Below are positions 8,203-25,103 of a DNA stretch of 64,000 bases, in pieces. The stretch covers positions 83,755 to 147,754 of the forward strand of contig OZ246408.1 of NCBI GenBank assembly GCA_965231015.1. Reading direction: 5' to 3'. The notes beneath the pieces are model-generated. The model did not search any database. It worked only from the letters and a program-made list of their open reading frames with translations, and was not told the origin of the DNA. This stretch comes from an uncultured Gammaproteobacteria bacterium (lineage in GTDB: Bacteria > Patescibacteriota > Patescibacteriia > UBA9934 > CAZDDW01). Every line of letters begins with the position of its first letter. Position 1 is the stretch's first letter. Position numbers and translations under genes: made by a program.

Positions 8203-8613
8203 ATGGCTGACGTTCAGTCTCACGATGGAGAAGAAAATTGGTTCTATTCCGCAACCGTGCAGGACCACTTTTTCAATCCGCGGAATCTTGCGACCGAGGG
8301 TCCAACTGATTATGATGCCATGGGTGAGGTTGGTTCGCCGGCTTGTGGGGACAAGATGAAAGTATGGATAAAAGTTGATCCAAAAACGAACAAGATTACT
8401 GACTTTAAATGGCGAACTTTCGGGTGCGCTTCAGCTATTGCTTCGACTTCTGTGGCTTCAGAAATGATGATTGGAAAAACCCTTGAAGAGGCTCAAAAAA
8501 TCACTCCAAGGAAAATTGTGGAAGAGCTTGGCGGTTTGCCTCCGCGAAAGATCCATTGTTCGGTGTTAGCAGATCAAGCCCTTCGAGCCGCAATTAAAAA
8601 CTATCAAAAATAA
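8203..8613 (+). CDS. iscU: Fe-S cluster assembly scaffold (IscU/NifU N-terminal domain type)
   Basis: …GSPACGDKMKVWIKV…, …FGCASAIASTS…, and a C-terminal …IHCSVLADQAL…; the ATG is 2 nt after the iscS stop. Confidence 0.85.
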   Translation: MADVQSHDGEENWFYSATVQDHFFNPRNLATEGPTDYDAMGEVGSPACGDKMKVWIKVDPKTNKITDFKWRTFGCASAIASTSVASEMMIGKTLEEAQKITPRKIVEELGGLPPRKIHCSVLADQALRAAIKNYQK

Positions 8614-8622
8614 GCCTAAAAT

Positions 8623-8883
8623 ATGAAAATAACCATTAAAGTAGATCCAGACCTTTGTATTGGAGCCGCAGCCTGCGTGGCAGTTGCCCCGGATTTTTAT
8701 CGTCTTAACGAAGACAATAAAGCAGTTGTGCTCGACCATGGAAAAGATGGGAATGAATACGAACGCACTATTGAGATCGAAGATGGTGAGCTCGATAATA
8801 TTCTGTTAAGTGCGGAATCTTGTCCGACCCTAGCAGTGTATATTTTTGACGAAGCGGGCAAACAATTGTTTCCCAAAAATTAA
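8623..8883 (+). CDS. Small [4Fe-4S]/[3Fe-4S] ferredoxin
   Basis: CIGAAAC…SCP cysteine pattern, 86 aa, within the Fe-S operon. Confidence 0.7.
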   Translation: MKITIKVDPDLCIGAAACVAVAPDFYRLNEDNKAVVLDHGKDGNEYERTIEIEDGELDNILLSAESCPTLAVYIFDEAGKQLFPKN

Positions 8884-8886
8884 ACT

Positions 8887-10026
8887 ATGAAATATTTGAT
8901 TATCGGTGGTGGCGTCGCTGGAACAACTTGCGCTGAAGAATTGCGCAAGCAGGATGCCAAGGCCGAGATCACAATTGTCAGCGAAGAAAACCACCCACTT
9001 TATTCCCGGGTGCTGCTTCCTCATTACGCCATGGGTAAGGTGTCGCGTGAAAAGTGTTTTTTGAAATCTTTTGAGTGGTACAGAAAACAAAAAATTGAAC
9101 TCATTGAAGGACAACGGGCAGTAAAACTCGACACAGAAAATAAGTTTGTCGAATTAGACGATGCGCGTGAGCTGCCGTATGATAAACTCGTAATCGCTAT
9201 CGGAACTGAGCCACGTCTTGAAACCGGTGAGCCGCGTGGAGTGGGTTACTTTTGGACCATCGACGACACGGACCACTTAGTTAAGTTGCTCGGCGAACCA
9301 GGACACAAACATGCCGTGATTCATGGTGGTGGATTTATTGCGTGTGAATTTTTGAATCTGTTTGCGCATCACGAACTAGCAACCACAGTAGTGTTGCGCG
9401 GTGAACATTTTTGGAATCGGATTCTTGAACCAAAAGTGGCAGATTATTTTATGAATTACCTGAAGGAGCAAGGGGTTGAAATTGTAACTGGGGCAAAAGA
9501 GTTAGAGGTGATGGGCAAGGAGGAGGTCAAAGCTGTTAGAACAAATGGAATTGAGACCAAGTGTTCGGTACTCGGGGTTGCAATCGGAAACGAGATCGAT
9601 TTAACCTGGCTTAAGGAGACAGGGGTTGAGATTGGGGATGGGATTCAAACAAATGAGTATCTTGAAACTAAAGTTTCCAATGTTTATGCTATTGGTGACG
9701 TGGCCGAGAGTTATGACTCGGTGGTGGACAGACAGTATTTGGCCGGAAACTGGGGTCGAGCGTTGACAATGGGCCGCACTTTGGCAAAAACCATGACCGG
9801 TGAGCGGACCGAGTTTCAGCACGTGAGTTCTTACGCGATCAATGTTTTGGGATTAGATGTGACTTTTATTGGTGACACGGACAAGGATGCATCGGAGCGA
9901 GTCGAAATCGAGGAAAAAGAGCAGGGAATTGCCCAAAAACACTATCGGAATGGAATAATGGTTGGAGTAGCCATTTTTGGTAGGGGATTTGATCGAAATA
10001 AGCTTACCCAGGAAGTAGGCAATTAA
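8887..10026 (+). CDS. FAD/NAD(P)-dependent pyridine nucleotide-disulfide oxidoreductase (ferredoxin/rubredoxin reductase-like)
   Basis: N-terminal GGGVAG Rossmann motif and a second GGGFIACE dinucleotide motif; last gene of the Fe-S operon. Confidence 0.8.
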   Translation: MKYLIIGGGVAGTTCAEELRKQDAKAEITIVSEENHPLYSRVLLPHYAMGKVSREKCFLKSFEWYRKQKIELIEGQRAVKLDTENKFVELDDARELPYDKLVIAIGTEPRLETGEPRGVGYFWTIDDTDHLVKLLGEPGHKHAVIHGGGFIACEFLNLFAHHELATTVVLRGEHFWNRILEPKVADYFMNYLKEQGVEIVTGAKELEVMGKEEVKAVRTNGIETKCSVLGVAIGNEIDLTWLKETGVEIGDGIQTNEYLETKVSNVYAIGDVAESYDSVVDRQYLAGNWGRALTMGRTLAKTMTGERTEFQHVSSYAINVLGLDVTFIGDTDKDASERVEIEEKEQGIAQKHYRNGIMVGVAIFGRGFDRNKLTQEVGN

Positions 10027-10067
10027 TTGAAAATTAGCTAAAATAAGATAAAAAGTAGATTTTTGGT

Positions 10068-10105
10068 CCTTATTATTCCTACGTACGAATAATAAGGTCT
10101 TTTTC
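10068..10105 (+). terminator. Rho-independent terminator of the Fe-S operon (CCTTATTATT…AATAATAAGG stem plus T-run)
   Basis: A 10-bp perfect stem followed by TTTTT. Confidence 0.65.
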
Positions 10106-10119
10106 TTTGTGTCTAGACA

Positions 10120-10148
10120 TTGACAAAAAGCCTAAAATATGCTATATT
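10120..10148 (+). promoter_or_regulatory. Promoter copy 1 of the island: TTGACA-17(…GCCTAAAATATGC)-TATATT
   Basis: A consensus -35/-10 at 17-nt spacing. Positions 10120-10155 are nearly identical to 12750-12785. Confidence 0.6.
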
Positions 10149-10290
10149 TGTATGTTCTCCGTGTTAGGCTTTTGGTCGTATTTTAGAAAATGCCGAGCGG
10201 AGGAAAAGATTTCCTCGCTCTTTACAATAAGGCAAAACCACAAAAAAAAATGTGCGGCGGCAAAAGCCGATCGCACGGAGGGAAACAAAA

Positions 10291-12675
10291 ATGGCCAAGT
10301 CTGCTACCGCAACCACTTTGATAAGCTTAGTGGCGAACATCGCCAACTGGACGAACGACAACCTGGGCGGTCGTATCGCGCGACCGTTCATCGAGAAGGC
10401 CATCCACGCGCTGTCCGCGCAGGGGGCCAAGTTGTCGGCCTCGGCCGTCATCAAAGAGCTCGTGAAGCTCGGCTTCAACCCGGAAGCCGTGCAGGGCTCG
10501 GCGCTCTTCAAGTACGCCGCTCCCACCCTGCTGACCGCAGGTGCGGGCGCGCTGAACGTGAAGGTGCCGGAATCGGTCTTCGGCGGTGATATCCGCCAGG
10601 CCAAGGAGCTCGAGAGCTTCTTGAACAACGTGATCGATCGAGCCGGCGAGGGAGCCTCGTCCGGCATCACCACAAGTGGGGTCGATGATCAGACCATGCC
10701 CGGGGTCACTCCCGGAACCATGGTCTACGGCAAGGCTCACAACATGCCGGGCCTCGCCGGGTACCGGCACCTGGCCATTCAGGGTCAGGGGGACCAGGTC
10801 TCCACGGTTTGTTCGGCCGTGGATCGGTTCTACGAGAACAACGCCTTGCGCGAGCTCATCATGAAGATGGGACTCCGGCGCCTCGACCGTGACACGGACG
10901 TCACGGAGATCGAGCCCCACATGACCTACCACCTCCCCCAGGAGGTCGACCACCTCCCGGACTGCCCCCACTGCCTCGGGCGTCTGATGGGCCTCGAGAG
11001 CGATGAGCTCTCGGGTCCGGACAGTCTGGAGCAGCTGCTCGACACTGAGCAGAAGCGAAAGTGGGCGGCTCTCGTCCGCCATGTGGCAGCTCACGAGCAC
11101 CGCGTGGCTATGATGATCCTGAAGAAGGGTCGCGTTGCGATCCTGAAGCAGGAGGGTCTCGTGGACGTGCTCAAGCTCGCCCTCGATGACATCGAGATCG
11201 GACCGGAGACGTTCGAGAAGGACGCCAGGCGGAAGGTGTTGCCCCACGGCATCACCGGAGCCGAGCATGACCGGACGGGCAACCAGATCGCCCCGTCGGC
11301 TCAGGGCGTCGTGGACGTCTTGTACCTCATGGACGAGGTTCAGGTCGATGGCGTCACCGAGTGGCGTCAGCTGCTCGACGAGTCCGTGGACGGGAACTGG
11401 TGGCAGGCCAAGAAGCGTCAGGCCGCCAAGTTCGTGGCCAACAACGGCGCGTTCGGCGTGGCAGTCCTGGCCTTCCTCGGGGTGCTCATGGGCATCCTGG
11501 TCCTCGGACTGGAGCTCATGTTCCTCGGGGCGGCGGCTCTTGGCGAGACGCTCTACGTCATGAGCTGGATGGGTGGTCCGGACTGGATGTTCGGCAACCC
11601 GATCGTTCCGGGCATCTTGAGCCTGTTCCTGGTCGCGATCGGCGTGGCCATCATGGCCGCTCCGTTTCACCTCCTTGAAAAGATGGTCTTTGGCCTTAAG
11701 AGCCACTGGCCGAGCTTTGACGAGGCAGTGGAGCGACTACCGGCATGGTTGCACTGGCTAAAGAGCGAGCGCGCCGAGGCCGGCACCACGGTGTACCGTC
11801 GCTCCGGGGTGGTCAAGTCACTGGCGCTGACCGTGATCACGGCTCACTTACTGTACGCCGTGCCGGTGCTGATCATCAACCTCGAGGCGTTTTTTTTCTT
11901 CCCGAACGTGCTGGAGGCAACCGAAGTGGTCAGCCGACTGATCGCCTTCCTGTCGCTGGCTATGCTCGGCTTCTGGATGCTGTCCGCCACGCGCGGGTCG
12001 TACCAGGAGGACAAGAATCGCGAAGAGGTTCTGTTGAATCGCCGGGGCGCGAACCGGTTCGTGGCTTTCCTATCGGATTCCGCGTACTCTGCGGTGAGGA
12101 GCTTCAACTGGGGCAGCGCGTTCACCTACGTGCTGTCCATCTGCGTGATCCCGGTCGTTTGGGGGGTCACGAAGATGTCTGGCTGGGCGTCCCCGTCGGT
12201 CACCAACCCCTCGATCATCGCGGGAGCCAACACGGGCTTCTTCACGAAGCTCACCGGTGTGCCCGGAAGCGTGCACCTCGGGGTGTTCGTGGGCATCTTG
12301 TTGGTCGCACTGCTTATATTGGTGGTGGCCGTGAACGTGCGCAACCGCGCCGGCGAGGTGGTGCTCTGGTCCATGATGGGCCTGTGCATCTTTCTGCTCG
12401 TCGGATACTTCGGCATCGGTGTTCCTGGTTTGACCGTGGCCAAGCTCGCCACGGACGTCGGACACGGAGACGGCTTCTTCGAAGCCCCGACGTACGACGG
12501 GATGTATCCCGACAAGAAGGACGAGCGACGCGCCCGGCGCAGTGCTCCGGTCTCGGGATATACCACAACCCCGACGACCGCCAACCCCCCTGTGGTTTCT
12601 AACCCCCAGCCCGGTTCGGATCGATCCGACGAGATCAAGAAGGCTCGTCAGGAATTGGCCGAATATGGCTGGTAG
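10291..12675 (+). CDS. GC-rich island protein A: 794 aa, a ~400-aa soluble N-domain (contains DCPHC) fused to a ~8-10 TM membrane domain and a Pro/Thr-rich tail; function unknown
   Basis: A GGAGGG RBS lies 9 nt upstream of the ATG. There is strong GC3 bias in this frame only. Long antisense ORFs are GC artefacts. No recognisable family motif. Confidence 0.72.
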   Translation: MAKSATATTLISLVANIANWTNDNLGGRIARPFIEKAIHALSAQGAKLSASAVIKELVKLGFNPEAVQGSALFKYAAPTLLTAGAGALNVKVPESVFGGDIRQAKELESFLNNVIDRAGEGASSGITTSGVDDQTMPGVTPGTMVYGKAHNMPGLAGYRHLAIQGQGDQVSTVCSAVDRFYENNALRELIMKMGLRRLDRDTDVTEIEPHMTYHLPQEVDHLPDCPHCLGRLMGLESDELSGPDSLEQLLDTEQKRKWAALVRHVAAHEHRVAMMILKKGRVAILKQEGLVDVLKLALDDIEIGPETFEKDARRKVLPHGITGAEHDRTGNQIAPSAQGVVDVLYLMDEVQVDGVTEWRQLLDESVDGNWWQAKKRQAAKFVANNGAFGVAVLAFLGVLMGILVLGLELMFLGAAALGETLYVMSWMGGPDWMFGNPIVPGILSLFLVAIGVAIMAAPFHLLEKMVFGLKSHWPSFDEAVERLPAWLHWLKSERAEAGTTVYRRSGVVKSLALTVITAHLLYAVPVLIINLEAFFFFPNVLEATEVVSRLIAFLSLAMLGFWMLSATRGSYQEDKNREEVLLNRRGANRFVAFLSDSAYSAVRSFNWGSAFTYVLSICVIPVVWGVTKMSGWASPSVTNPSIIAGANTGFFTKLTGVPGSVHLGVFVGILLVALLILVVAVNVRNRAGEVVLWSMMGLCIFLLVGYFGIGVPGLTVAKLATDVGHGDGFFEAPTYDGMYPDKKDERRARRSAPVSGYTTTPTTANPPVVSNPQPGSDRSDEIKKARQELAEYGW

Positions 12676-12683
12676 GACTTCCT

Positions 12684-12733
12684 GGCCCGGTCGGGACGCG
12701 CAGTAAAATGCGTTGTCTCGGCCGGGTCTTTTC
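12684..12733 (+). terminator. Imperfect hairpin terminator after protein A (GGCCCGGTCGGGAC…GTCTCGGCCGGGTC plus TTTT)
   Basis: A stem with 2 mismatches followed by a T-run. Confidence 0.4.
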
Positions 12734-12749
12734 CGTTTATGCTTATATC

Positions 12750-12778
12750 TTGACAAAATTGCTAAAATATGCTATATT
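12750..12778 (+). promoter_or_regulatory. Promoter copy 2 of the island: TTGACA-17(…TGCTAAAATATGC)-TATATT
   Basis: A near-duplicate of 10120-10148. Confidence 0.6.
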
Positions 12779-12980
12779 TATATGTTCACAATTCATACTC
12801 GAGGGGAAGAGTAAGGCGCTGATTCTTTGTTTAACTGGGTTTTCCGGTTAAATATCCCCTCAAGAATTAGCGCTTTATTCGTCCCATTGAGGACACCAAC
12901 CAGAACCTTTCAATAATAGAACGACGACGGGGGAGGACCCCCAACAATAAAGGGGTTCCACCCCGAAAGGAGATACGGGT
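12779..12980 (+). promoter_or_regulatory. Roughly 200-nt structured 5' leader of the lipoprotein gene (several G/C hairpins; AGGAGA RBS at its end)
   Basis: Hairpins CTCGAGGGGA…TCCCCTCAAG, GGGGGAGGACCCCC and AAAGGGGTTCCACCCC are seen directly. Confidence 0.4.
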
Positions 12981-13751
12981 ATGAGGTACATCCTCATGAT
13001 GCTCGCAACCCTGACCCTGGTCGGCACCTCCGGGTGCAGCACCTACAACACGGCCACTCGCGGTGGCCAGTTCTTCGGCACCGGTGCGGTGGCCGTGCGC
13101 GGCATGGACGTCGCACAGGACATGTGCACCACCAAGGACGGCGAGAGATTGCCGTGCAACCTGTCGGCCGTGAGCACCCCGCACGGGGCCGTGGTCGGCG
13201 CGAGCAACGGCGCCTACTACGGCTACCCGTACAGCGCGGTGCCGTACGCGCCGGGCATGATGCTCGGCGGATCGACCGGCAACCCGCAGCTAGACTCGGT
13301 CAAGTTGTACCGCGCCACCCATCCGGGGGTGCCGTACAACCAGACCGCGGCAGACCTGTCCGCGGCCGGGACGTACCAGGCGGTGCGTCAGGGTCAGATG
13401 ACCCGGGCCGCGGTGGCCGGCAACACCGCCGCGATCTACGATGTCGCGGCCGACCAAGCCGCCACGGACGAGTCCGTGCGCGGCCTTGAGGCGAACCAGG
13501 CCGCCACTGCGGCCGAGGTTGAGGACGTGAATCTGCGTTTGCATCAGAACGCGCAGACGCAACAACGGATGGCCCAGGACATTGCCGGGGCCATCAAGGA
13601 GAACGAGGACCGAGCCAATGCGGCCGGTCAGGCGGCCAGCCTGGCTCTCGAGGTTCTCGACGAGGGTGGGTCGAATGGTTCGGCACTGACCGTGGATCAC
13701 CAGATCGAGATCGCGGTTCCGGCCGGGACTGCGGAGGAGGACGACCGATGA
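12981..13751 (+). CDS. GC-rich island protein B: lipoprotein (lipobox LVGTSGC) with an Ala/Gln-rich coiled-coil C-terminus
   Basis: Signal peptide plus lipobox, AGGAGA RBS, and GC3 bias in this frame. Confidence 0.68.
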   Translation: MRYILMMLATLTLVGTSGCSTYNTATRGGQFFGTGAVAVRGMDVAQDMCTTKDGERLPCNLSAVSTPHGAVVGASNGAYYGYPYSAVPYAPGMMLGGSTGNPQLDSVKLYRATHPGVPYNQTAADLSAAGTYQAVRQGQMTRAAVAGNTAAIYDVAADQAATDESVRGLEANQAATAAEVEDVNLRLHQNAQTQQRMAQDIAGAIKENEDRANAAGQAASLALEVLDEGGSNGSALTVDHQIEIAVPAGTAEEDDR

Positions 13752-14566
13752 AGAAGCTAAACCTGATCGCGGTGGCCTTCGTGGTCGCCACCTGCTGTGT
13801 GCTCCCGGCCTACGGGCAGGGAGGCAACCAGCCTTTCGTGATCTCGGAGTCCACCTGGCAGATGTGCCGGGAGGAGGGGATCACGGTGTACGAGGAGTGC
13901 GTGCTCGCCAAGGCTGCCGTGTCCTACACGGCGGTCAAGGGAGAGCGTGACGAGCTTCAAACCCAGAACGCGCACCTGCGCGGTCAGGTCGCGAATCTCG
14001 AGGACGAGAACGCGCACCTGCGCGGTCGCGTCATCTCGCTTGAAGACGCCCAGAGCAGGCTCGAGGCCAAGCTCGACGACCTGCTCGCCGCATCCGCGAC
14101 CGGACCAGCGCCGAGCCTGACCACTCCGGCCATGCCCGCCGCCGCACCAGTGGCCGACCCGCTTTCGGTCGCCTGGAGCAGCGAGCCGCGCAACCACGAG
14201 TTCGCGGCCCTCACCGGTTTGACCTGGGAGTCGTGCGAAGACATGGGTCTTTGCACGGCGTTCGTGAACCAGTCCGCCTACTCGATCACGATCGACGTGG
14301 GCGGGGTGCGTACGGTCATCGGCCGGTCGCACGGGGTCGCGAGCCTCACTCCGGCGCCAACCACTCATGGCGCCGAGACTCTGGTCGGACCGGGTCAGCG
14401 GGTGTACTTGTACGTCGGAGAATCGAGCTTCGACGCCACGTACACCGCGTACGTGCCGATCCGAGGTACGTTCGTGCCGAGCTTCACAAAGACGGTCACG
14501 AACGTGAAGACCAAGGGGGCCAATCCTTTCAAGGGGATTGGCCGAGGTGGCTGGAGCTCCCTCTAG
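13748..14566 (+). CDS. GC-rich island protein C: secreted protein with tandem leucine-zipper-like repeats (NAHLRGQVANLEDENAHLRGRVISLED) and a C-terminal globular domain
   Basis: The ATGA start/stop overlap with protein B implies translational coupling. A signal peptide is present. The repeat is visible at the DNA level (13963-14040). Confidence 0.68.
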   Translation: MKKLNLIAVAFVVATCCVLPAYGQGGNQPFVISESTWQMCREEGITVYEECVLAKAAVSYTAVKGERDELQTQNAHLRGQVANLEDENAHLRGRVISLEDAQSRLEAKLDDLLAASATGPAPSLTTPAMPAAAPVADPLSVAWSSEPRNHEFAALTGLTWESCEDMGLCTAFVNQSAYSITIDVGGVRTVIGRSHGVASLTPAPTTHGAETLVGPGQRVYLYVGESSFDATYTAYVPIRGTFVPSFTKTVTNVKTKGANPFKGIGRGGWSSL

Positions 14567-14595
14567 CCCTGGTCTTCTTCTCTCCAAAAAAAAAA

Positions 14596-14634
14596 CACCC
14601 CGCAGGGTTCTCTTGCGGGGTGTCTCACTTTTTA
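14596..14634 (+). terminator. Strong rho-independent terminator ending the GC-rich cassette (CACCCCGCAGGG…CTTGCGGGGTG plus TTTTT)
   Basis: A 10-bp GC stem plus a T-run, immediately after protein C. Confidence 0.75.
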
Positions 14635-14644
14635 TAGAATTGTC

Positions 14645-15037
14645 TTAACCTTGGGCAGCTGTGACAATCGCGGAGATAACGTAGGAAGAAATGGCGTACG
14701 CAGCCACGGTAATGATCAGACCAATAATGGCATTGATCATAATTCCCTTGGCTTTCTTCACGGTGTCGGAATTACCACCGGCGGTCATCCAAAGAAATCC
14801 TGAATAAACAATCAGGACCACAAAGACAAGACCGAGCAACCCGAGCACCACGTTGATAATACCGGCAATTATGGTGGTCAAATCTCCTGAACCAAATCCA
14901 CCTTCTGTGCCAACGTCAGTCAGTGACTGTGAGGCTCCGTCTAAACCAGTAAAGGCATCATCTTGAGCATGAGCTACACTGGCACTAAGGTAAGTCAGTG
15001 GAGAAAGGGCCGCTAGGGTTTTGATAACCTTATGCAT
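14645..15037 (-). CDS. TrbC/VirB2-like pilin-family small membrane protein (paralog 5 of 5)
   Basis: Signal peptide, then hydrophobic helix, GGxxWMTxGGN loop, and a second hydrophobic helix (…YSGFLWMTAGGNSDTVKKAKG…). Confidence 0.5.
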   Translation of the reverse strand: MHKVIKTLAALSPLTYLSASVAHAQDDAFTGLDGASQSLTDVGTEGGFGSGDLTTIIAGIINVVLGLLGLVFVVLIVYSGFLWMTAGGNSDTVKKAKGIMINAIIGLIITVAAYAISSYVISAIVTAAQG

Positions 15038-15069
15038 AAGTTTGTTATTTATTAGTTTTCTAAAATTAA

Positions 15070-15456
15070 TTATCCGGCAGTACCTGATCCGCTCACGGCC
15101 TGAACAAGAGCCGGTACCACATAACTGGCAATGGCATAGGCCGCGGCCACAATCACAAGTCCAATCAGGGAATTAACAATGGTGGCTCGAGCCTTTTTGA
15201 CCGTTTCAGTGTTTCCCATCGCGGTCATCCAGGTAATACCACCATAAATTAAAAGCACTACAAAAACAAGACCAACAATACCAAGCACTGCATTAATGAT
15301 GCCAGCAACCACTCCGGCCAGGGACGGGGCCGTGGAACCAAATCCGGCCGCACCGGCAGTGTCCTGGAGACCGGTATCTTCCGGACTGATAGCCTGAACC
15401 AGGCTTGGTGGACCAAGCATCAGCAGACTCAAAATAACGTAGTAGACTTTTCGCAT
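15070..15456 (-). CDS. TrbC/VirB2-like pilin-family small membrane protein (paralog 4)
   Basis: Same architecture (…YGGITWMTAMGNTETVKKARA…). Confidence 0.5.
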   Translation of the reverse strand: MRKVYYVILSLLMLGPPSLVQAISPEDTGLQDTAGAAGFGSTAPSLAGVVAGIINAVLGIVGLVFVVLLIYGGITWMTAMGNTETVKKARATIVNSLIGLVIVAAAYAIASYVVPALVQAVSGSGTAG

Positions 15457-15530
15457 ATGACGCGAGAGGACGAAATATTCATCCGCTCACGCCAGGCCCC
15501 TTCTAAAATGAATCAGAAGGGGCTTTGGTT

Positions 15531-15956
15531 TTAAGCAACCGCTTCCACCAGAGCATTGATAACAAAGCTGGCGATAGCGTAGGCGGCAAGTACAATAGCC
15601 AGACCAATGATACCCATGATGATCAGCTTGCGTGCGTTACGCACCTTTTCATCTTGACCACCAGAGGTCATCCACAGGAAGCCACCCCAGAGAATGATCA
15701 CAACTGCTACTACTCCGAGGAATCCAAGGATGGCTCGGATAATGGTAGCGATCACAGTGGCCAGATCTGCCTGACCAAGACCAGCTACGTCCCCAATCGT
15801 TTCACCTTCCCCGCCTTCAACCCGTAAAAGATCATTAGCGGAAATTGGAGCGTAGGAGTCGTCATCATCGTCCTGCGCCAAGGCTGGAACAGCCACCATG
15901 CTCATGCATAGAGCCATACCAAGACCAAGGGCAATCAGCTTCTTTGTCATAGACAA
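15531..15956 (-). CDS. TrbC/VirB2-like pilin-family small membrane protein (paralog 3)
   Basis: Same architecture (…WGGFLWMTSGGQDEKVRNARK…) with an acidic DDDDD segment after the signal peptide. Confidence 0.5.
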   Translation of the reverse strand: MSMTKKLIALGLGMALCMSMVAVPALAQDDDDDSYAPISANDLLRVEGGEGETIGDVAGLGQADLATVIATIIRAILGFLGVVAVVIILWGGFLWMTSGGQDEKVRNARKLIIMGIIGLAIVLAAYAIASFVINALVEAVA

Positions 15957-16064
15957 ATGTGTTAATTAACTAGTTAATTACTTAAATAATTATAGCACAA
16001 TAAGCAGGAAACCGTATACACAAACAACTTAAATCAGAGTTTTTATTATTTGAAGCATAGCTTC

Positions 16065-16412
16065 TTAATTTCCACTGATTTCTCCACTCGTCAGAGCGCG
16101 AATGACTTGATCTACAGCTAAATACGAAGTGAAAATAATAGCCAGACCAATCACGGCCCAAATAAGAGTCTTTTTTCCTTTTTCTATTGCCTCGCTTTTA
16201 CCGCCCGAAGTTAACCAAAGAAAACCACCGTAGATGAACATTAAAAGAGCTACTGATCCGGAAATACCAAGAGCCACTCGAATGACGCGACCGATTAAAA
16301 CCGGAATAGAAGCTCCACCGAGTGGATCAGTTAATTCTTGAGCCAGGGCCGGGTTAATAATTACAACTAGGGCAACAAGGGTGAGAAAAGAAATTAAGTA
16401 AAACTTTTTCAT
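16065..16412 (-). CDS. TrbC/VirB2-like pilin-family small membrane protein (paralog 2)
   Basis: Same architecture (…YGGFLWLTSGGKSEAIEKGKK…). Confidence 0.5.
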   Translation of the reverse strand: MKKFYLISFLTLVALVVIINPALAQELTDPLGGASIPVLIGRVIRVALGISGSVALLMFIYGGFLWLTSGGKSEAIEKGKKTLIWAVIGLAIIFTSYLAVDQVIRALTSGEISGN

Positions 16413-16426
16413 ATAAATGTTTTTGA

Positions 16427-17071
16427 TTAAAATTCTTCAGGAGCCTCTCCAATATCAACTTCAGTACAACACACTTCCTCAGCTCCCAAAGGGCACAGTC
16501 CGGTTCCTGAACTACAGTTAGGGGCTAGGCCGTGGGTACTTTCCGAATAACACACGCCGCCTTCTTGATAATTACAAAGTGTGGTACAGATTCCGTTTTC
16601 ACAAACCGCGTTGACATCGCAGGCGGTTCCATCCTCAGTATCAAAGGTACATGGAGCATATTCAGCACTACTGCCGGCAATGGTTCCTCGGGTGATGGTT
16701 GATTCAACAGTTTGTATTCCGATGTAAGCCACGAATACAATAATGATTCCCACAATAGCCCCGGTTATATAGGCCTTGCCTTTTTGAACTCGACCGGATT
16801 CACCCTGGGAAGCCAGTAAATAAAAGCCACCAACTACAAACAGGAGCAGAGCCAAAGAGCCAACTATGCCCAAGATGTAATCTGAAATATTAACAAAGAC
16901 CTGTAAAAAGTCGTTTAAAGAACAGTCCCCGGTTTCCCAGCAGAGAGTGGTTACTCCCGAGAGTATTCCGGCCTCAGAAGCACTCACCGTACTTTCACTT
17001 TCCTGAGCCAGGGCTGGCAGGGCAGTGGCCGATAAGGTCAGGGCTATCAATAATCCTGTCAACCTTTTCAT
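16427..17071 (-). CDS. TrbC/VirB2-like pilin-family protein with an extra C-terminal Cys-rich domain (paralog 1)
   Basis: Core …GGFYLLASQGESGRVQKGKA…, plus a ~70-aa C-terminus with 14 Cys. The start overlaps the stop of the upstream SBP gene by 4 nt. Confidence 0.5.
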   Translation of the reverse strand: MKRLTGLLIALTLSATALPALAQESESTVSASEAGILSGVTTLCWETGDCSLNDFLQVFVNISDYILGIVGSLALLLFVVGGFYLLASQGESGRVQKGKAYITGAIVGIIIVFVAYIGIQTVESTITRGTIAGSSAEYAPCTFDTEDGTACDVNAVCENGICTTLCNYQEGGVCYSESTHGLAPNCSSGTGLCPLGAEEVCCTEVDIGEAPEEF

Positions 17072-19338: not shown

Positions 19339-19639
19339 ATTCGGTTAAAAATAGGATTAATTTCGCTTTATAGTATACCTTTTTTGCCTATTTTAGTAAA
19401 ACAAAAATATCCCGAGCAACAAACTTGGAATACTTATCATCTTTGCTATCCAGTGTTTTAATATTTCAGCTAACATTTCGGCATATCTGATGTTTGCCGT
19501 AGCGTAGCAGAGGCAAATATAGGTGAAGGCTCTACAAGAGCCGTAACCAGATATACGCTGTTATATGATGTACATGTTTTCCTTTAATTTCTGAAAGAAA
19601 TTGCTCTTACAAAAGAAAGATCCGATTTTGTTTTTCCGT

Positions 19640-19757
19640 TTTGGGCGAAGGGCAGAGGGGATTAAGGGGTGAATGCCCGAGCCCAAAACACCACTTTCTG
19701 TTTGAGGGAGGGGCAAGAGGGGAATTAAAGGGGTGAATTGCCCCGACCGAAAACATA
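19640..19757. repeat. Two tandem copies of a ~55-nt unit (GGGCARAGGGGAATTAAAGGGGTGAATKGCCCSRRCCSAAAACA) at the left edge of the AT-rich island. On the minus strand each unit reads as a GGGG-loop-CCCC hairpin plus a T-run (tandem terminators)
   Basis: Direct repeat seen in the sequence. Confidence 0.55.
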
Positions 19758-20630
19758 CTATTTCTTGAAATATTTCTTGATAATAGCAATTACATCTTTT
19801 TTATCACTGACTTTCATTAAATCTTGTGTGCTTTCTTTTGCGAAACGATTCAGTTTCGGTAAATTCAGATGACAAGCTCGAATAATTTTATGTTTTGCAA
19901 ATTTAATTAGGCTGGGATCGTTTTTGTTGAAAATACCAAGACGAACAAAAAGTGTTTCGTATGCCATTATTATTGCGAAAAAATAAACAAATGGAATAAA
20001 CGAGAATGTTAATAATGGAGGCAAAATAAAAGTCTTCAAATTTTGTGAAGTCATAATATTCTGAAAATCACCAAAAACTTTTCCAAGTGCAAAAACAATG
20101 AAAAAAACACCAATCAAAGACAGAATAAAATCAAATAACTTTTTTACAGGCAGATACTCTTTTTTTAATTCAGAAACAGCACTCATTGCTACGATAAAAA
20201 CCAAAACGGGAACTAAAATTATTTCCGCTACTAAATTAAATGTGTAGAGCGTTAGAATAAACTCAAGGGCTAAAATGATTTTGAGGTTATCTTTCAAGAT
20301 TTTAATGAAAAATCCTTTTTCCTGATTTGCCTTGTTAGTATTCATGAGTAATACAAACGCAACGGCTAAAAACCAGTAAATCGTATCTTTTAGAAGTGAA
20401 AAATCCCAGATTCCAATTTTAACTAATACTAAAACTGTAAATCCGGTATATACAATCGCAGCAATAATGACAGATAGTATTTTTATTTGGAAAAGAGATT
20501 TTAAAACACCAGAAAAGGATTGTCTGATTTTCTCTTGAGAAAGTATCCAAATTGTCAAAACAAGAAGCCAGAGAATTATTGCTATTTCTCTTGTGTTGAA
20601 TTGTTGAAAAAAGGTCATGAATTTATCCAT
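19758..20630 (-). CDS. Polytopic membrane protein of unknown function (8 predicted TM helices), AT-rich island
   Basis: The 290-aa hydrophobic ORF overlaps the stop of the upstream 517-aa gene by 8 nt. Confidence 0.5.
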   Translation of the reverse strand: MDKFMTFFQQFNTREIAIILWLLVLTIWILSQEKIRQSFSGVLKSLFQIKILSVIIAAIVYTGFTVLVLVKIGIWDFSLLKDTIYWFLAVAFVLLMNTNKANQEKGFFIKILKDNLKIILALEFILTLYTFNLVAEIILVPVLVFIVAMSAVSELKKEYLPVKKLFDFILSLIGVFFIVFALGKVFGDFQNIMTSQNLKTFILPPLLTFSFIPFVYFFAIIMAYETLFVRLGIFNKNDPSLIKFAKHKIIRACHLNLPKLNRFAKESTQDLMKVSDKKDVIAIIKKYFKK

Positions 20631-22176
20631 TCTTTATGTCGTCAAAGAATTTGTGGTAAATTCTATCCAATAAATCAATTTGATAAATCTCATTTCTTCC
20701 AGCGATAATATCTTCCAGTGAATCAAACAAATTCTGTTGTTTGTTTTTTGCTTGCTGGCAAACTAGCTCAAATTCCCAACAGCCAAAAATATAAAAATTG
20801 TCTGACTGTTCTTTCATTTTCTCTTTTATTTTTTCTCGTGCATATTTGTTTACTCCAAACATCTCATCTAAAAACACAACAATGTTGATGATTTTTTGGT
20901 TTTTATATTTTACTTGGCTAACATTATCGGCTTTTATGTGTGTTTCTTTTTTAGCTATTTTATCAACTTCTTTAGCCAAATCTTCGATCAGTTTATTGAT
21001 ACCATTACCATCTTCGTTTTGTATACCAGCTCTTGAATAATTATCTATCTTTCGTTTTTTGCACTCGATCTGAAAAATAAAATCGTCTGAGACTAAAAGC
21101 CAATCGGTTGTTTTCCATTCATTTTTCCCTACTTTGTAAGTTGCTTCTTTGATTACTTCTGCCCTTGTTAGAGCGTCTATATTGTATTGTTTAAAAAATT
21201 CTCCGATATAATCTTCAAAAATACTGCCGATTTCCTGAAGTAATGTTGTTTTGTCACTATTTTCTAATCTTTCGAGAAGCACGTAATATAAGCCTTCAAA
21301 TGTGCCATATAAAAAGTCTGAAATAGACGGAATTACAAATTTTTCGTTTTCCTTTGCGGAATTGGTTTTTATTACAGGGTATCTTTTTAATACGTTAAAT
21401 TCGTATTTTTTAAGTAGCGAATCAGTTATTTCATGTTTTTTATTTTCTTCTACGAATTTATCTGATGATACAGAAAAAATATCGAAAAACTTATTTATGT
21501 TTTCTTCGCTAAGCAGTGGTCTAAGCGGAATAATTGAGGTATTTGTGTAGCTACTCATTAAAAATGAAGTAGCAAATTGTCCGTCCTCTCTTGGGCAATA
21601 ATTGGCGAAAATACAAGTGCCAATTTTCATTGCTTTGAATATTTCTATTCCAAGTGCTGAATCTAATTTCTTCCCAAGCGATGGATTCCGTTCAAAAATT
21701 TTTGAAAAAATCCAATAGTATCTTGCAATAATACTTGAATGAAAACGTAAATAAAACCACTGATGATTTGTGTTGCGAATAACCCATAACCATCCCTTGT
21801 CTGTTCTGTCCTCTTCAGTTTTAATGTGGTTTAATTCTGTCTCCATATTTCCGTACATATAAACCAAATTCGTTAAATCCACATCGTTATATTGTACCTC
21901 TTGCTCTTTGCAATTCAGTAAAATCTGTTTAGAGAGAAAGGAAACAAAATCTCTAGTGAGAGTACCTGCTTTTAATTTAACTTTTGGTGATGCATAAAAT
22001 TCAAATTCAACATTTACATTTACATACACTTGGTTCCCCATTAGGGCACCTAATTTTTGAATCGACATTAAAGAACCGACAAAATCAAAATTTTTGACGA
22101 CATTATTAAAATCATCAACAGTAAAGTGTCTTGAAAATGGAATATCTGACGAAGTTTGAATTTTTATATCGCTCAT
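20623..22176 (-). CDS. Uncharacterised 517-aa protein (candidate defence/restriction component), AT-rich island
   Basis: A long ORF with very low-GC codon usage. The start was placed at the ATG 29 nt downstream of the stop of the DUF262-HNH gene (the upstream in-frame ATG at 22314 would overlap that gene by 110 nt). No recognisable motif. Confidence 0.5.
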   Translation of the reverse strand: MSDIKIQTSSDIPFSRHFTVDDFNNVVKNFDFVGSLMSIQKLGALMGNQVYVNVNVEFEFYASPKVKLKAGTLTRDFVSFLSKQILLNCKEQEVQYNDVDLTNLVYMYGNMETELNHIKTEEDRTDKGWLWVIRNTNHQWFYLRFHSSIIARYYWIFSKIFERNPSLGKKLDSALGIEIFKAMKIGTCIFANYCPREDGQFATSFLMSSYTNTSIIPLRPLLSEENINKFFDIFSVSSDKFVEENKKHEITDSLLKKYEFNVLKRYPVIKTNSAKENEKFVIPSISDFLYGTFEGLYYVLLERLENSDKTTLLQEIGSIFEDYIGEFFKQYNIDALTRAEVIKEATYKVGKNEWKTTDWLLVSDDFIFQIECKKRKIDNYSRAGIQNEDGNGINKLIEDLAKEVDKIAKKETHIKADNVSQVKYKNQKIINIVVFLDEMFGVNKYAREKIKEKMKEQSDNFYIFGCWEFELVCQQAKNKQQNLFDSLEDIIAGRNEIYQIDLLDRIYHKFFDDIKNG

Positions 22177-22204: not shown

Positions 22205-23374
22205 CTATCTGTTACCCTTTGCCCGATTATGTGTTTTACACAACATCTCACAATTTTTAATGTCACTTTTGCCGCCCTTACTCCAAGCCGAAACATGGTC
22301 GGCGTCCATTTCACTTAAACTCCAAATTTTTGTTTTGTTTACGTCGTGACCGATAGCACAATGCGGACAATTTGATTTACCCTTTTTCTCCGCTTCAGCG
22401 GTTTGTGTTTTATAAACTGCTTTTTTGGTTGCTTCATCAAAAACTCGAACTTCAAGTAATTTTGTATCAACTGAACCTCCGAGAATATATTCAAAAATGC
22501 CTTTGCGCTTTTTAACATACGGATCGGCATAGAGTGTTTGCACCTCAACTGACACTTTCTTGGGATCATATGCTTTCTTATGGTACTGCTCATACAGTCG
22601 GCCCCACTCAAGTCCGCGCATTTCACTTTCAACATCAATAAATACACTGGAAACCCAATCGATGACGCTGTTGAAATAGGTTTTTAGCTCTTTGATATTC
22701 TCGTCGTAGCGATGATGACTCATATAATCACCAATATTCCCCTTACTTACCCAATCAAGGGCGCACTCTAAAAAATCTTGCCGATTTGCGCTGCCTTTTA
22801 CATATGCACTCCATTTTTGGATATTGGCATTTTGACTATTGCTGAATTCAGCTTTTCCAAGAGTAACAAATGGGCCAGAGTAAACTGCGTTGAGTAGTTC
22901 CTGATTGTTAAGTGGTACTCCAACAATATTGATTGTTTTGAACCATTCTTTTATCTCACTTTCGGTTCCTTCGCACTCATAAATAGTTAGTTTTGTTTCC
23001 AAAATCTTGGTTTGTTTGTCTTTTGCCATGCCACCAAAATATTGCTCCATGCCGTTTTCATCTTTGATAGCAAATTTGTCAGTAACAAATCGCCCAAGAC
23101 TGGTAATGCGCTGTTGACCGTCTAAAACTTCGAGATTGTTGTCGCTTACCTTATTAAAATAAATCAATCCTATTGGGTAACCTTTTAGGACTGAATCAAT
23201 AACAGCTATTTCTTTTTTGCCGCCGTCAGAAGCGTAAATATAGTTTCGCTGATATTCAGGCTGAATAGTCAGTTTGCCGGATAAACCGAATAAGCCCTTA
23301 CCTTCTAGCTCGTTATATACAAAGCCATCGCAGATTTCTTTGACAGTAATGGTGATTTGTAAACTTGTTTTCAT
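22205..23374 (-). CDS. DUF262 (ParB/GmrS-like, DGQQR motif) plus HNH endonuclease fusion protein
   Basis: N-terminal …IQPEYQRNY…DGQQR… and C-terminal …CPHCAIGH…[32 protein letters not shown] (HNH). Confidence 0.78.
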
Positions 23375-23375
23375 A

Positions 23376-24566
23376 TTATTGTTTGTTATGTTTGATAAGC
23401 ACCCTTTGATAAACTTTTACTAATAGCCCGTCACGGTTAACAACGCCGCTTGCATTTAAGTCATAAGTTCCTTTTTTTCCGAATTTATCTAAATACGCTT
23501 GTTTACATTCTTCAGTCGTGTACACCCTTGTTTTTAATTTGTACAAATCTTCATTTTCACACATCCCAACAATTTTAAACTGTTCGGGGCTATATTTATC
23601 AAGAATGCTTATCGGCACGCCCATAATGCCATCGAAATCACTCGGAATGTTTTTTACTAACGATACTTCTATCGCGTCATAATTTTCGTACTTTTCAAAA
23701 GGTTTTTTTGTTACGAATTTGATTACCTCTGCTTGTGTCATGAGTGGTAGAGGTTGATGACGGCGACCATGATCAAGGTTAGTGAACCAACGAACACCTT
23801 GCACTCGTGTAACATAAACTTTTTTGCCACTTGCATTTGTTTTGATTTCACGGACTTGCTCCAAATTCGCAATAGCTTCTGGTATCTCAAAAAACATTGC
23901 GCCGGCATTAATTTTGTAATTATTGCCCAACCAAACTTTATTTTCTTTAAGTAATGGGAATATTTCTTTGTATGTTATCGCGTTCAGGTTGCCGATGATC
24001 AAAAACTTTTTATCATAATCAACAAGTTGTTTTATGTATTCTCGAAATAGACTGAATGGTGGATTTGTTACCACAATGTCAGCTTGTTTAAGTAGAGCAA
24101 TAGATTCTTCGCTACGAAAATCACCATCGCCATCTAGCGGAGTCCACTCATTGTCTTTATTTTGCTTAAGCTGTAGAGCAATGTCCTCTAAGTCAAAATC
24201 GCCGTCGCCATCTATGTCGCCTACTTTATTAATAATGAATTTATTTGCAGTTACCTTTCGGCGGCCTTTTGGTTTTGTGAGAGTTTTATCATCGCCAAAC
24301 AATGCTAGTTGCGTATTGGCTACGGGTGATGGTTTATAACTGGTAGTAATAAGCTGTTTTAGTCCGAGCCTGTCAAAGTTGAGTACAAAATATCGAAAGA
24401 AATTGCTTTCAAACGGATCGTCGCAGTTGCAATACACTACCTTGCCTCGGAATACATTGGGGTCGTATTCCAAATAGGCCTCTATTTCTTTTTGAATATC
24501 GGAATATTGAGTATAAAACTCATCATTCTTTGTTCTTTTTGCGTTGGTGAGATTTTTATTCGCCAT
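23376..24566 (-). CDS. N6-adenine DNA methyltransferase (gamma-class-like, NPPF motif)
   Basis: …DEFYTQ… near the N-terminus and …[13 protein letters not shown]… catalytic motif. The stop abuts the start of the DUF262-HNH gene. Confidence 0.78.
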
Positions 24567-24596: not shown

Positions 24597-24725
24597 TCAT
24601 TTTCCCCTAATAAATAAACCGTTTCCGGAGCGAAGCGGAGGAAACACCGCTTTATTCCCCTTATCAAATAAATGTTTTCGTAGCGGAGCGAAGAAAACTC
24701 CATATTTCCCCTCTATAATAAAAGA
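24597..24725. repeat. Degenerate tandem repeats (TTYCCCT-WATMAAATAAA…GGAGCGAAG units) between the MTase gene and tRNA-Ser
   Basis: Three related units are seen directly. Confidence 0.4.
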
Positions 24726-24784
24726 AAAACAAAATTGGATTCTTTTTAAGAGCTGGGGCGATAGCCCCAAAAGGAAAACATGTA

Positions 24785-24955
24785 TTTCATATAACGGCCG
24801 GCGGCTATGCGACGTGGTCCGGAGACGAGCTTGCTCGTCGACGGGCCATGTCCGCATAGCTGACTGTTGTGCGATGTCGCGTAGCGACGAGCGCAACAAA
24901 AGGCGTAGCCGCCGGCCGTTGTGGCGAAGGAGCGAAGCGATTTCGCCACAACTCG
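24785..24955. other. GC-rich, highly structured ~170-nt element in AT-rich DNA (a 16-bp long-range stem ACGGCCGGCGGCTATGCG/CGTAGCCGCCGGCCGT enclosing internal hairpins, then an 11-bp hairpin GTTGTGGCGAA…TTCGCCACAAC); candidate ncRNA or recombination site
   Basis: Inverted repeats are seen directly. The strand is unknown. Confidence 0.35.
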
Positions 24956-25011
24956 TTTATATGTGAAGTAAAGTTCGGATAAGGTGTAAAAAATGGAGAA
25001 TATGTGAAATT

Positions 25012-25103
25012 TGGCGGAGGGAGGGAGATTCGAACTCCCGGTACCCTATAAGGATACACCGCATTTCGAGTGCGGCGCCTTCAACCACTCGAGCCATCCC
25101 TCC
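25012..25103 (-). tRNA. tRNA-Ser (CGA)
   Basis: A 92-nt cloverleaf with a long variable arm; anticodon stem CCGCA/TGCGG, loop CTCGAAA; encoded CCA. Confidence 0.85.

Follow-up and report, generated by a model that had tools for sequence, protein, structure and literature searches.

Do two overlapping genes of a bacterial defense island, one for a large soluble protein and the other for a membrane protein, encode a dedicated effector pair, or have they simply come to lie side by side? The question is raised by positions 19758 to 22176 of a 64,000-nucleotide (nt) stretch of contig OZ246408.1 (assembly GCA_965231015.1, a bacterium placed by GTDB in the Patescibacteriota), which is referred to here as the window. 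In a first-pass annotation of this DNA it was postulated that a protein of 517 amino acids (aa) and the 290-aa protein encoded directly behind it form a novel effector pair. Comparison with related loci suggests another answer. The two genes are very probably not a dedicated pair, and the locus as a whole is probably best explained as a mobile Type II restriction-modification (R-M) cassette in which they are independent cargo and neighbors by chance. The 517-aa protein itself most likely belongs to the superfamily of the antiphage nuclease GapS1.

The cassette contains four genes, which are tightly packed on the minus strand in the order given here:

23376..24566, minus strand: EcoRI-like N6-adenine DNA methyltransferase (MTase), 396 aa, part of the cassette backbone (Pfam EcoRI_methylase, 3e-124; PADLOC MTase_II, 2e-104)
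22205..23374, minus strand: DUF262(GmrSD_N)-HNH endonuclease, 389 aa, also part of the backbone (PADLOC REase_II, 9e-86, near full length; Pfam GmrSD_N and HNH)
20623..22176, minus strand: 517-aa soluble protein, ATG start, most likely a divergent GapS1-like PD-(D/E)xK protein (NCBIfam GapS1, E 3.1e-13)
19758..20630, minus strand: 290-aa polytopic membrane protein with ~7 transmembrane (TM) helices, ATG start, of an unnamed R-M- and defense-associated family, here an independently inserted module

Both focal open reading frames (ORFs) and their 8-nt overlap, ATGGATAA, are as first described, and their position directly downstream of the MTase and DUF262-HNH genes on the same strand was confirmed as well. 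The ATG at 22176 is backed by 518-aa full-length homologs, while an alternative GTG ORF reaching 22314 would overlap the HNH gene. For the membrane gene, the first ATG is the conserved start, the second being absent from three related loci (L014, L019, and L020); a 286-aa start was used in one NCBI gene call (P0070). The GC content is 0.31 in the 517-aa gene and 0.29 in the 290-aa gene, compared with 0.37-0.39 in the R-M pair and 0.44-0.46 in the flanks.

The co-occurrence of homologs, which had been proposed as a check on the pair, speaks against it. Searches with tblastn and a family hidden Markov model (HMM) found a membrane-family gene in none of 13 other loci that encode 517-aa homologs, and reciprocal searches with tblastn and a profile HMM found a GapS1-like gene in none of 93 other membrane-family loci, where 80 metagenome loci, three IMG/VR loci, and several contig look-ups were scanned. 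The lone exception, L102, is the same element with identical proteins in an independent assembly; that is, the pair does not co-occur outside one element. Furthermore, no conserved neighbor of any kind is common to 12 loci with 517-aa homologs, whose surroundings include genes for a D12 MTase, a serine recombinase, APH, and DUF4160 as well as unknown genes, and the 517-aa gene thus behaves as a single-gene unit.

The closest relatives of the cassette show how the two genes part company. In L001, the closest of all, the HNH and 517-aa genes are each 91% identical to those of the window. There, the 517-aa gene ends in ...IIIGK* and is followed directly by TATGTTTTCGGTCGGGGCAAT, which in the window is the sequence after the stop codon of the membrane gene; L001 has no membrane gene. 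The reverse is seen in L014, which shares the terminal repeats, the MTase gene, the HNH gene (91%), and the membrane gene (83%), but in which an unrelated 207-aa ORF replaces the 517-aa gene and a further 180-aa gene lies downstream of the membrane gene. Similarity between L014 and the window ends 12 nt past the HNH stop codon and resumes 11 nt ahead of the ATG of the membrane gene. In L014, L019, and L020, the identical ATGGATAA overlap is formed with the unrelated 207-aa gene, because the stop codon of the upstream gene falls within codons 2-3 of the membrane gene. The overlap, which had been taken as a sign of coupling, is therefore a property of the membrane-gene module, namely its 5' edge, rather than the product of co-evolution.

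What, then, is the 517-aa protein? A scan of NCBIfam returned a single match, GapS1 (NF047931; E 3.1e-13, 49.4 bits), in which residues 134-491 align with profile positions 92-439 of 455, and a Pfam scan returned none; PADLOC gave a weak Aga_Nuclease match over residues 394-459. None of its 67 close homologs, which come mainly from metagenome-assembled genomes (MAGs) of the candidate phyla radiation (CPR)/Patescibacteria, is annotated. A profile search of 1.84 billion representatives gathered 1442 clusters at E<=1e-3, mostly of proteins of ~500 aa that match end to end. When 60 members of these clusters were sampled, 58 also matched the GapS1 profile at E<=1e-3 (best E 5.7e-33, still far under the curated cut-off of that model). 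The significant, near-full-length similarity to GapS1 is therefore common to the relatives of the protein. In the same 60 sequences, which are ~20% identical, D358 never varies, and the conservation of E371 and K373 is 90% or higher; these residues form the catalytic motif D-x12-E-C-K, i.e., DWLLVSDDFIFQIECKK. Thus, the residues of a PD-(D/E)xK site are present in the C-terminal half of the protein. Taken together, these results make it highly probable that the 517-aa protein is a divergent, GapS1-like member of the superfamily that lies outside the curated subfamily.

The predicted structure agrees with this assignment. In an AlphaFold2 (AF2) model of high confidence (predicted local distance difference test [pLDDT] 91.7, predicted template modeling score 0.90), the N-terminal ~330 aa are mostly helical and may be a sensor, and the C-terminal nuclease core carries D358, E371, and K373 on adjacent beta-strands; that is, the core has the restriction-endonuclease-like alpha/beta fold with the D...(D/E)xK signature. 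In a Foldseek search of the PDB, the best match was Upx (PDB 9wuf; E 4e-4, probability 1.0, TM-score 0.34, identity 11%), followed by Nt.BspD6I, Can2/Card1, R2 RLE, FokI, McrC, and Shedu; a sequence-profile search of the PDB with the 517-aa family matched no chain. Upx is a single-protein antiphage nuclease with dual PD-(D/E)xK domains (PMC13099982). The 517-aa protein resembles it in having a regulatory region ahead of a C-terminal PD-(D/E)xK core within a single defense protein, but Upx, with its two nuclease domains and a chain of 1212 residues, is more than twice as long.

GAPS1 (GMT-island antiphage system 1) occurs chiefly in Klebsiella, Vibrio, and E. coli. This antiphage PD-(D/E)xK nuclease acts as a single protein, and mutation of D313 or K328 abolishes its defense; dormancy follows its activation by the T7 capsid protein, as shown for the Vibrio and E. 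coli proteins (Mahata et al., bioRxiv 10.1101/2023.03.28.534373). GAPS1 and the 517-aa protein are both single polypeptides of ~450-520 aa with the PD-(D/E)xK site in the C-terminal half, the 15-residue spacing between D358 and K373 is the same as that between D313 and K328, and both lack a conserved partner gene and occur in mobile or defense contexts. In contrast, the 517-aa protein is only ~20% identical to superfamily members outside its own clade, and this clade is found mainly in CPR/Patescibacteria MAGs. By analogy with GAPS1, the 517-aa protein would be a self-contained sensor-nuclease, silent until a phage protein (the capsid protein in the case of GAPS1) activates it, and it might then arrest the infection or the growth of the host. 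Two loci with 517-aa homologs (L007, 5056-6561, and L008, 8001-9506) merit separate mention: by tblastn, the homolog is continuous over residues 4-514, whereas as an ORF under translation table 11 it is interrupted, which points to stop-codon recoding, probably of UGA, in this lineage.

The 290-aa protein presents a different picture. Hydropathy, the AF2 helices, and the positive-inside rule together indicate ~7 TM helices, not the eight originally counted, in an N-out/C-in topology with a basic C-terminal cytosolic tail of 64 aa (isoelectric point [pI] 10.3). Its AF2 model has a pLDDT of 80.9. Neither its sequence nor its fold has a significant match in Pfam, NCBIfam, PADLOC, the PDB, or BFVD, and a sequence-profile search of the PDB with the whole family matched nothing. 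The structure prediction and fold search that had been proposed for both proteins thus gave a PD-(D/E)xK nuclease fold for the 517-aa protein and no match for the membrane protein. Likewise, the earlier failure to assign either of them to a known family is borne out for the membrane protein but not for its neighbor. The invariant residues of the membrane family are W75, W86, F108, F124, Y129, E136 (within a TM helix), P213, Y216, and L257; no His, Cys, or Ser is invariant, and no enzymatic motif is detectable. CPBP/Abi intramembrane proteases conserve Glu-Glu and His motifs in TM helices. This family was considered and rejected, as there is no match to the Pfam model (PF02517) and no His among the invariant columns. 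Described families of transporters, channels, and membrane defense effectors were also considered, and none matched in sequence or fold.

The membrane family is nevertheless sizable, with 297 clusters in a set of 5.8 billion proteins and, as a lower bound, more than 243 confirmed matches in a metagenome scan; the sole name in the source records is "membrane protein" (one Salmonella record). Its upstream co-directional gene is hypervariable, with 44 BLAST clusters among 64 upstream genes, and those that can be annotated by Pfam or PADLOC are nearly all defense genes. They include R-M genes (Type ISP, Type IIG, MmeI-like R-M fusions, HsdM, HsdS, and Type III Res plus endonuclease) and genes for an MTase-Mrr fusion, an NgoFVII-type restriction endonuclease (REase), a TIR protein, AbiEii, DUF4238, and HNH, with weak matches to HEPN and PD-(D/E)xK domains as well. 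For the 40 non-redundant loci whose upstream sequence reaches 2.5 kb or more, an R-M gene was found within 6 kb in no fewer than 22, and in 20 of these it lies upstream on the same strand; these counts are lower bounds. The membrane gene is often translationally coupled to the gene upstream. In L043, it has hsdM on one side and hsdS on the other, overlapping the upstream gene by 1 nt and separated from the downstream gene by 3 nt; in another locus, a Type IIG gene, the membrane gene, and a 321-aa gene are joined by 1-nt overlaps; and in L103-L107, the order is helix-turn-helix gene, Type IIG gene, 230-aa gene, membrane gene. A further Type IIG example comes from the Bacteroidota isolate Pleomorphovibrio marinus, in which PIN-TPR, Fic, and Wadjet genes accompany the membrane gene in one island, and members of the family are found on Salmonella, Clostridium, and Arcobacter plasmids.

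No recurrent small partner was found upstream, where many neighbors are 180-250 aa long and all are unrelated by permissive BLAST; nor was a recurrent downstream or fused partner found, the C-terminal extensions and downstream genes being mutually unrelated. A phage origin of the membrane family is unsupported, because there are no homologs in 50,697 GenBank phage records and only three weak ones in IMG/VR, where homologs of the 517-aa protein are absent. The homologs of both genes thus lie mostly in defense or mobile contexts rather than in metabolic operons, as the defense setting first proposed for them would predict. Given these findings, it is reasonably likely that the membrane family is related to defense, whereas any specific mechanism for it can be offered only tentatively. 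In this respect, the suggestion of an undescribed defense component remains plausible for the membrane protein, but not for the GapS1-like 517-aa protein.

Some members of the membrane family were observed in other settings. In L028 (6971-10606), the membrane domain is fused to a KAP-family P-loop NTPase in a protein of 1211 aa. The Salmonella plasmid pS2122_1 (L118, 7031-8314; WP_010989066.1) encodes a 427-aa "membrane protein" beside integrase fragments and a DEAD helicase, and on an Arcobacter plasmid (L120, 6914-8236) the protein is 440 aa long and its gene follows those for a 794-aa AAA ATPase and DUF3800. In unrelated genomes, membrane-family genes repeatedly have a DUF3800 gene within a few kb (L014, 12029-12769; L017, 2257-2913; L120, 3105-4217). 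In L113 (3472-4992 and 10898-11362), an island with membrane-family, AbiH-like, and AbiL-like genes seems to be inserted in a comM-like Mg-chelatase gene, with an intact comM-like copy upstream and two gene fragments downstream.

How did the two genes come to be adjacent? The cassette that carries them is ~5.2 kb long and low in GC (0.29-0.39), and is arranged as terminal inverted repeat, MTase gene, DUF262-HNH gene, variable slot, subterminal repeats, and terminal inverted repeat. Its end features, none of which is assigned to a strand, are as follows:

24724..24798: MTase-side terminal inverted repeat, with block TIRb (24724-24742) and block TIRa (24770-24798) around a GGGGC/GCCCC hairpin
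19664..19752: two copies of the subterminal motif AAGGGGTGAATGCCCG..CCCAAAA, between the membrane gene and the terminal inverted repeat
19557..19636: membrane-gene-side terminal inverted repeat, with block TIRa (19557-19585) and block TIRb (19613-19636) around an AATTTC/GAAATT hairpin
19465..19556: sequence conserved beyond TIRa, including a covarying outer stem, as seen in the alignment with L014, L019, and L020; Logan contigs break here

The inverted repeats are imperfect and ~80 nt long, with arms of 29 nt (90%) and 24 nt (83%), for which no chance matches are expected. Each consists of two conserved blocks that flank a 6-bp hairpin, and the hairpins differ between the two ends by compensatory changes in five of six pairs, both in the window and in L014. 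The latter, which comes from another MAG, has the same ends at 3862-3933 and 8580-8652 within unrelated flanks; that is, the same element, bounded by terminal inverted repeats, occurs at different genomic sites. The subterminal motif is kept at the same end in L001, L014, L015, L016, and L019. On the membrane-gene side, conservation runs ~60-90 nt past the terminal repeat, and the stretch 19465-19556 is probably the true left end of the element. In Logan contigs of the same population, breaks fall at ~19479-19505 and at 24794; the element therefore assembles as its own 5.3-kb contig. A tRNA-Ser(cga) gene lies at 25012-25103, 214 nt outside the right end. To search for an empty insertion site, the flanking genes were used in exact-protein look-ups, but all contigs obtained in this way break at the ends of the element. 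The tRNA was the sole Rfam match between 18 and 26 kb, and a scan for promoters and terminators gave nothing above the shuffled background. The first-pass annotation had placed the genes in a defense island, and this is borne out in that both are cargo of a low-GC, horizontally mobile defense cassette.

Furuta, Abe, and Kobayashi are said to have described, in NAR in 2010, mobile R-M gene units flanked by inverted repeats. The cassette resembles such units in its R-M pair with extra cargo, its ~80-nt repeats, its low GC, and its varied loci. It differs from them in having a slot that exchanges unrelated ORFs within ~12 nt of start and stop codons and in having ends that carry structured hairpins with compensatory changes.

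The slot itself can be followed across relatives (window, 22193-20641; L014, 6389-6989; L001, 3228-3245), where genes are swapped or absent at ORF-precise boundaries, and the cargo boundaries lie within ~12 nt of the neighboring stop or start codons. The slot contains a 517-aa, a 207-aa, or a 189-aa gene, and the membrane gene and the 180-aa gene (a PADLOC PDC-S50 match) are each present or absent among the relatives. Just outside the cassette, between its right terminal repeat and the tRNA gene, the window contains a GC-rich branched stem-loop (24795-24960; fold z-score -9.4). It has no match in Rfam, and assembly contigs break on both of its sides. Copies that are ~76% identical lie near the element end in L019 (1837-1928 and 2794-2885), and the stem-loop may represent a structured repeat or a site targeted by insertions.

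The membrane gene comes and goes as a module with ORF-precise borders, independently of the 517-aa gene. In the model to which these observations lead, the 290-aa protein would be a generic, membrane-acting second-line defense module, for example an abortive-infection or exclusion effector, that would back up a linked nuclease or R-M system rather than serve as the dedicated effector of the 517-aa protein.

Other explanations must be weighed against this one. In the proposal made first, the two genes would constitute a new two-gene abortive-infection system, with the 517-aa protein as sensor or enzyme and the membrane protein as the effector dedicated to it. The shared strand and the 8-nt overlap, the unusually low GC of both genes, and the unchanged arrangement in the independent assembly L102 speak for such a system. 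Nevertheless, this proposal is largely refuted by the comparative data and must now be considered very improbable, given the reciprocal absence of co-occurrence (0/13 and 0/93), the presence in L001 of the same backbone with a 517-aa gene but no membrane gene, the recurrence of the overlap with an unrelated gene, and the ability of GAPS1 to act as a single protein. It could also be argued that the 517-aa protein, with its restriction-endonuclease-like PD-(D/E)xK core and its place in the same operon-like array as the MTase, is the cognate restriction endonuclease of this MTase and that the DUF262-HNH protein is a separate Type IV enzyme. However, the MTase and HNH genes, which are 1 nt apart and match curated profiles as a Type II MTase and REase, are kept together in L001, L014, L017, and L102 whatever the third gene, and the HNH protein fits the PADLOC Type II REase profile end to end. 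This conserved pairing and profile match argue against the 517-aa protein as the cognate enzyme, and the DUF262-HNH protein is likely to fill that role. Furthermore, the linkage to an MTase is not constant, as most 517-aa homologs have no adjacent MTase (one adjoins the homolog only in L004 and the related L002), and the best family match is GapS1 rather than an REase family. Consequently, the chance that the 517-aa protein is the cognate enzyme is slight in the extreme.

For the membrane protein, a less specific form of coupling can be envisioned, in which it is a generic adaptor or effector for whichever defense gene lies directly upstream, including, without specificity, the 517-aa gene. 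As a guard like PrrC, it might be kept silent by the nuclease or R-M complex until inhibition of this complex by a phage sets it free, or it might be a membrane anchor that places the nuclease at the site of DNA entry. The nearly constant co-directionality with the upstream neighbor, with about half of the gaps at most 50 nt and overlaps of -8, -4, and -1 nt, is consistent with such a role, as are the member inside the Type I operon of L043, the chain of 1-nt overlaps from a Type IIG gene to the 321-aa gene, the member fused to a KAP NTPase, and the strongly basic cytosolic tail (pI 10.3). Yet 44 clusters among 64 upstream partners would seem too diverse for one conserved interface, some loci have gaps of more than 180 nt or neighbors on the opposite strand, and L001 retains the R-M and 517-aa genes without the membrane gene, so a general coupling of this kind is unlikely. 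PrrC, a soluble ATPase-anticodon nuclease within the EcoprrI Type Ic locus, is an abortive-infection gene embedded in an R-M operon, and as such it illustrates how a second-line effector could logically be linked to restriction. The membrane gene resembles it as a non-R-M gene that lies co-directionally in or behind R-M genes, as with hsdM and hsdS in L043; unlike PrrC, the 290-aa protein is a 7-TM protein without a detectable enzymatic motif. Alternatively, the membrane protein may have nothing to do with defense, being a hitch-hiker or a gene that maintains the element (a transporter, for example, or an addiction or exclusion function of the cassette) or a neutral passenger of variable regions. 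No domain, motif, or fold ties it to a known defense effector, variable islands collect non-defense cargo too, and one plasmid member lies beside integrase fragments. A non-defense role is quite improbable, however, when set against the repeated embedding of the family in defense operons of CPR, Bacteroidota, Campylobacterota, and Enterobacteria, even between the genes for R-M subunits, and its absence from all 50,697 phage records.

The preferred explanation, independent cargo in a mobile R-M cassette, has difficulties of its own. The 49.4-bit GapS1 score is well under the curated cut-off of 320 bits, so the protein falls outside the subfamily model, and its activity and trigger are extrapolated across a large sequence distance. 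None of the four genes of the cassette encodes a transposase or recombinase, and no target-site duplication is recognizable at its ends; its status as a mobile element is drawn from comparative evidence only, and a non-autonomous element is possible. The membrane family is tied to defense through guilt by association: the count of R-M genes was obtained in part with queries from the same loci and without a formal background control, about half of the loci have no recognizable R-M gene, and one upstream neighbor is a housekeeping CCA-adding enzyme. In addition, the tight coupling in several loci, with overlaps of -8 to -1 nt, is such that the membrane protein could work physically with the product of the preceding gene, including the 517-aa protein.

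A bolder reading, which must be regarded as doubtful, would see in the 7-TM family, with members in CPR, Bacteroidota, Campylobacterota, Firmicutes, and Enterobacteria, a portable membrane immunity module that plugs ORF-precisely behind R-M systems of every type and other nucleases as a second-line effector or guard, and in its carrier a new type of transposase-less, hairpin-ended cassette with terminal inverted repeats and an exchangeable slot. Such a module might respond to the triggering or inhibition of the linked nuclease, for example by depolarizing the cell or by keeping DNA from entering.

In place of a candidate two-gene system, which can be dropped, the locus offers two sharper leads. 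The defense repertoires of CPR/Patescibacteria are thought to be dominated by R-M systems. The GapS1 superfamily of single-protein nucleases (~1,400 clusters at 50% identity) would now extend into these bacteria. The other lead is a previously unannotated membrane family whose most consistent neighbors are R-M and other defense genes; if functional, it would represent a membrane-level layer linked to restriction, and the homologs on Salmonella and Arcobacter plasmids allow this to be tested directly. Furthermore, the ORF-precise swapping within a cassette bounded by terminal inverted repeats provides a concrete example of the gene-by-gene re-assortment of defense islands.

Elsewhere in the window, two regions away from the cassette were noted. 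The GC content of positions 10000-14600 is 0.60-0.62, against ~0.45 for the genome, and three large ORFs in this region (807, 256, and 272 aa; 10252-14566) have no Pfam match on record in the matching contig L115. Positions 14645-17071 encode five consecutive small membrane proteins that resemble pilins of type IV secretion systems (TrbC/VirB2), beside a gene for a solute-binding protein; an array of this kind is typical of CPR genomes.

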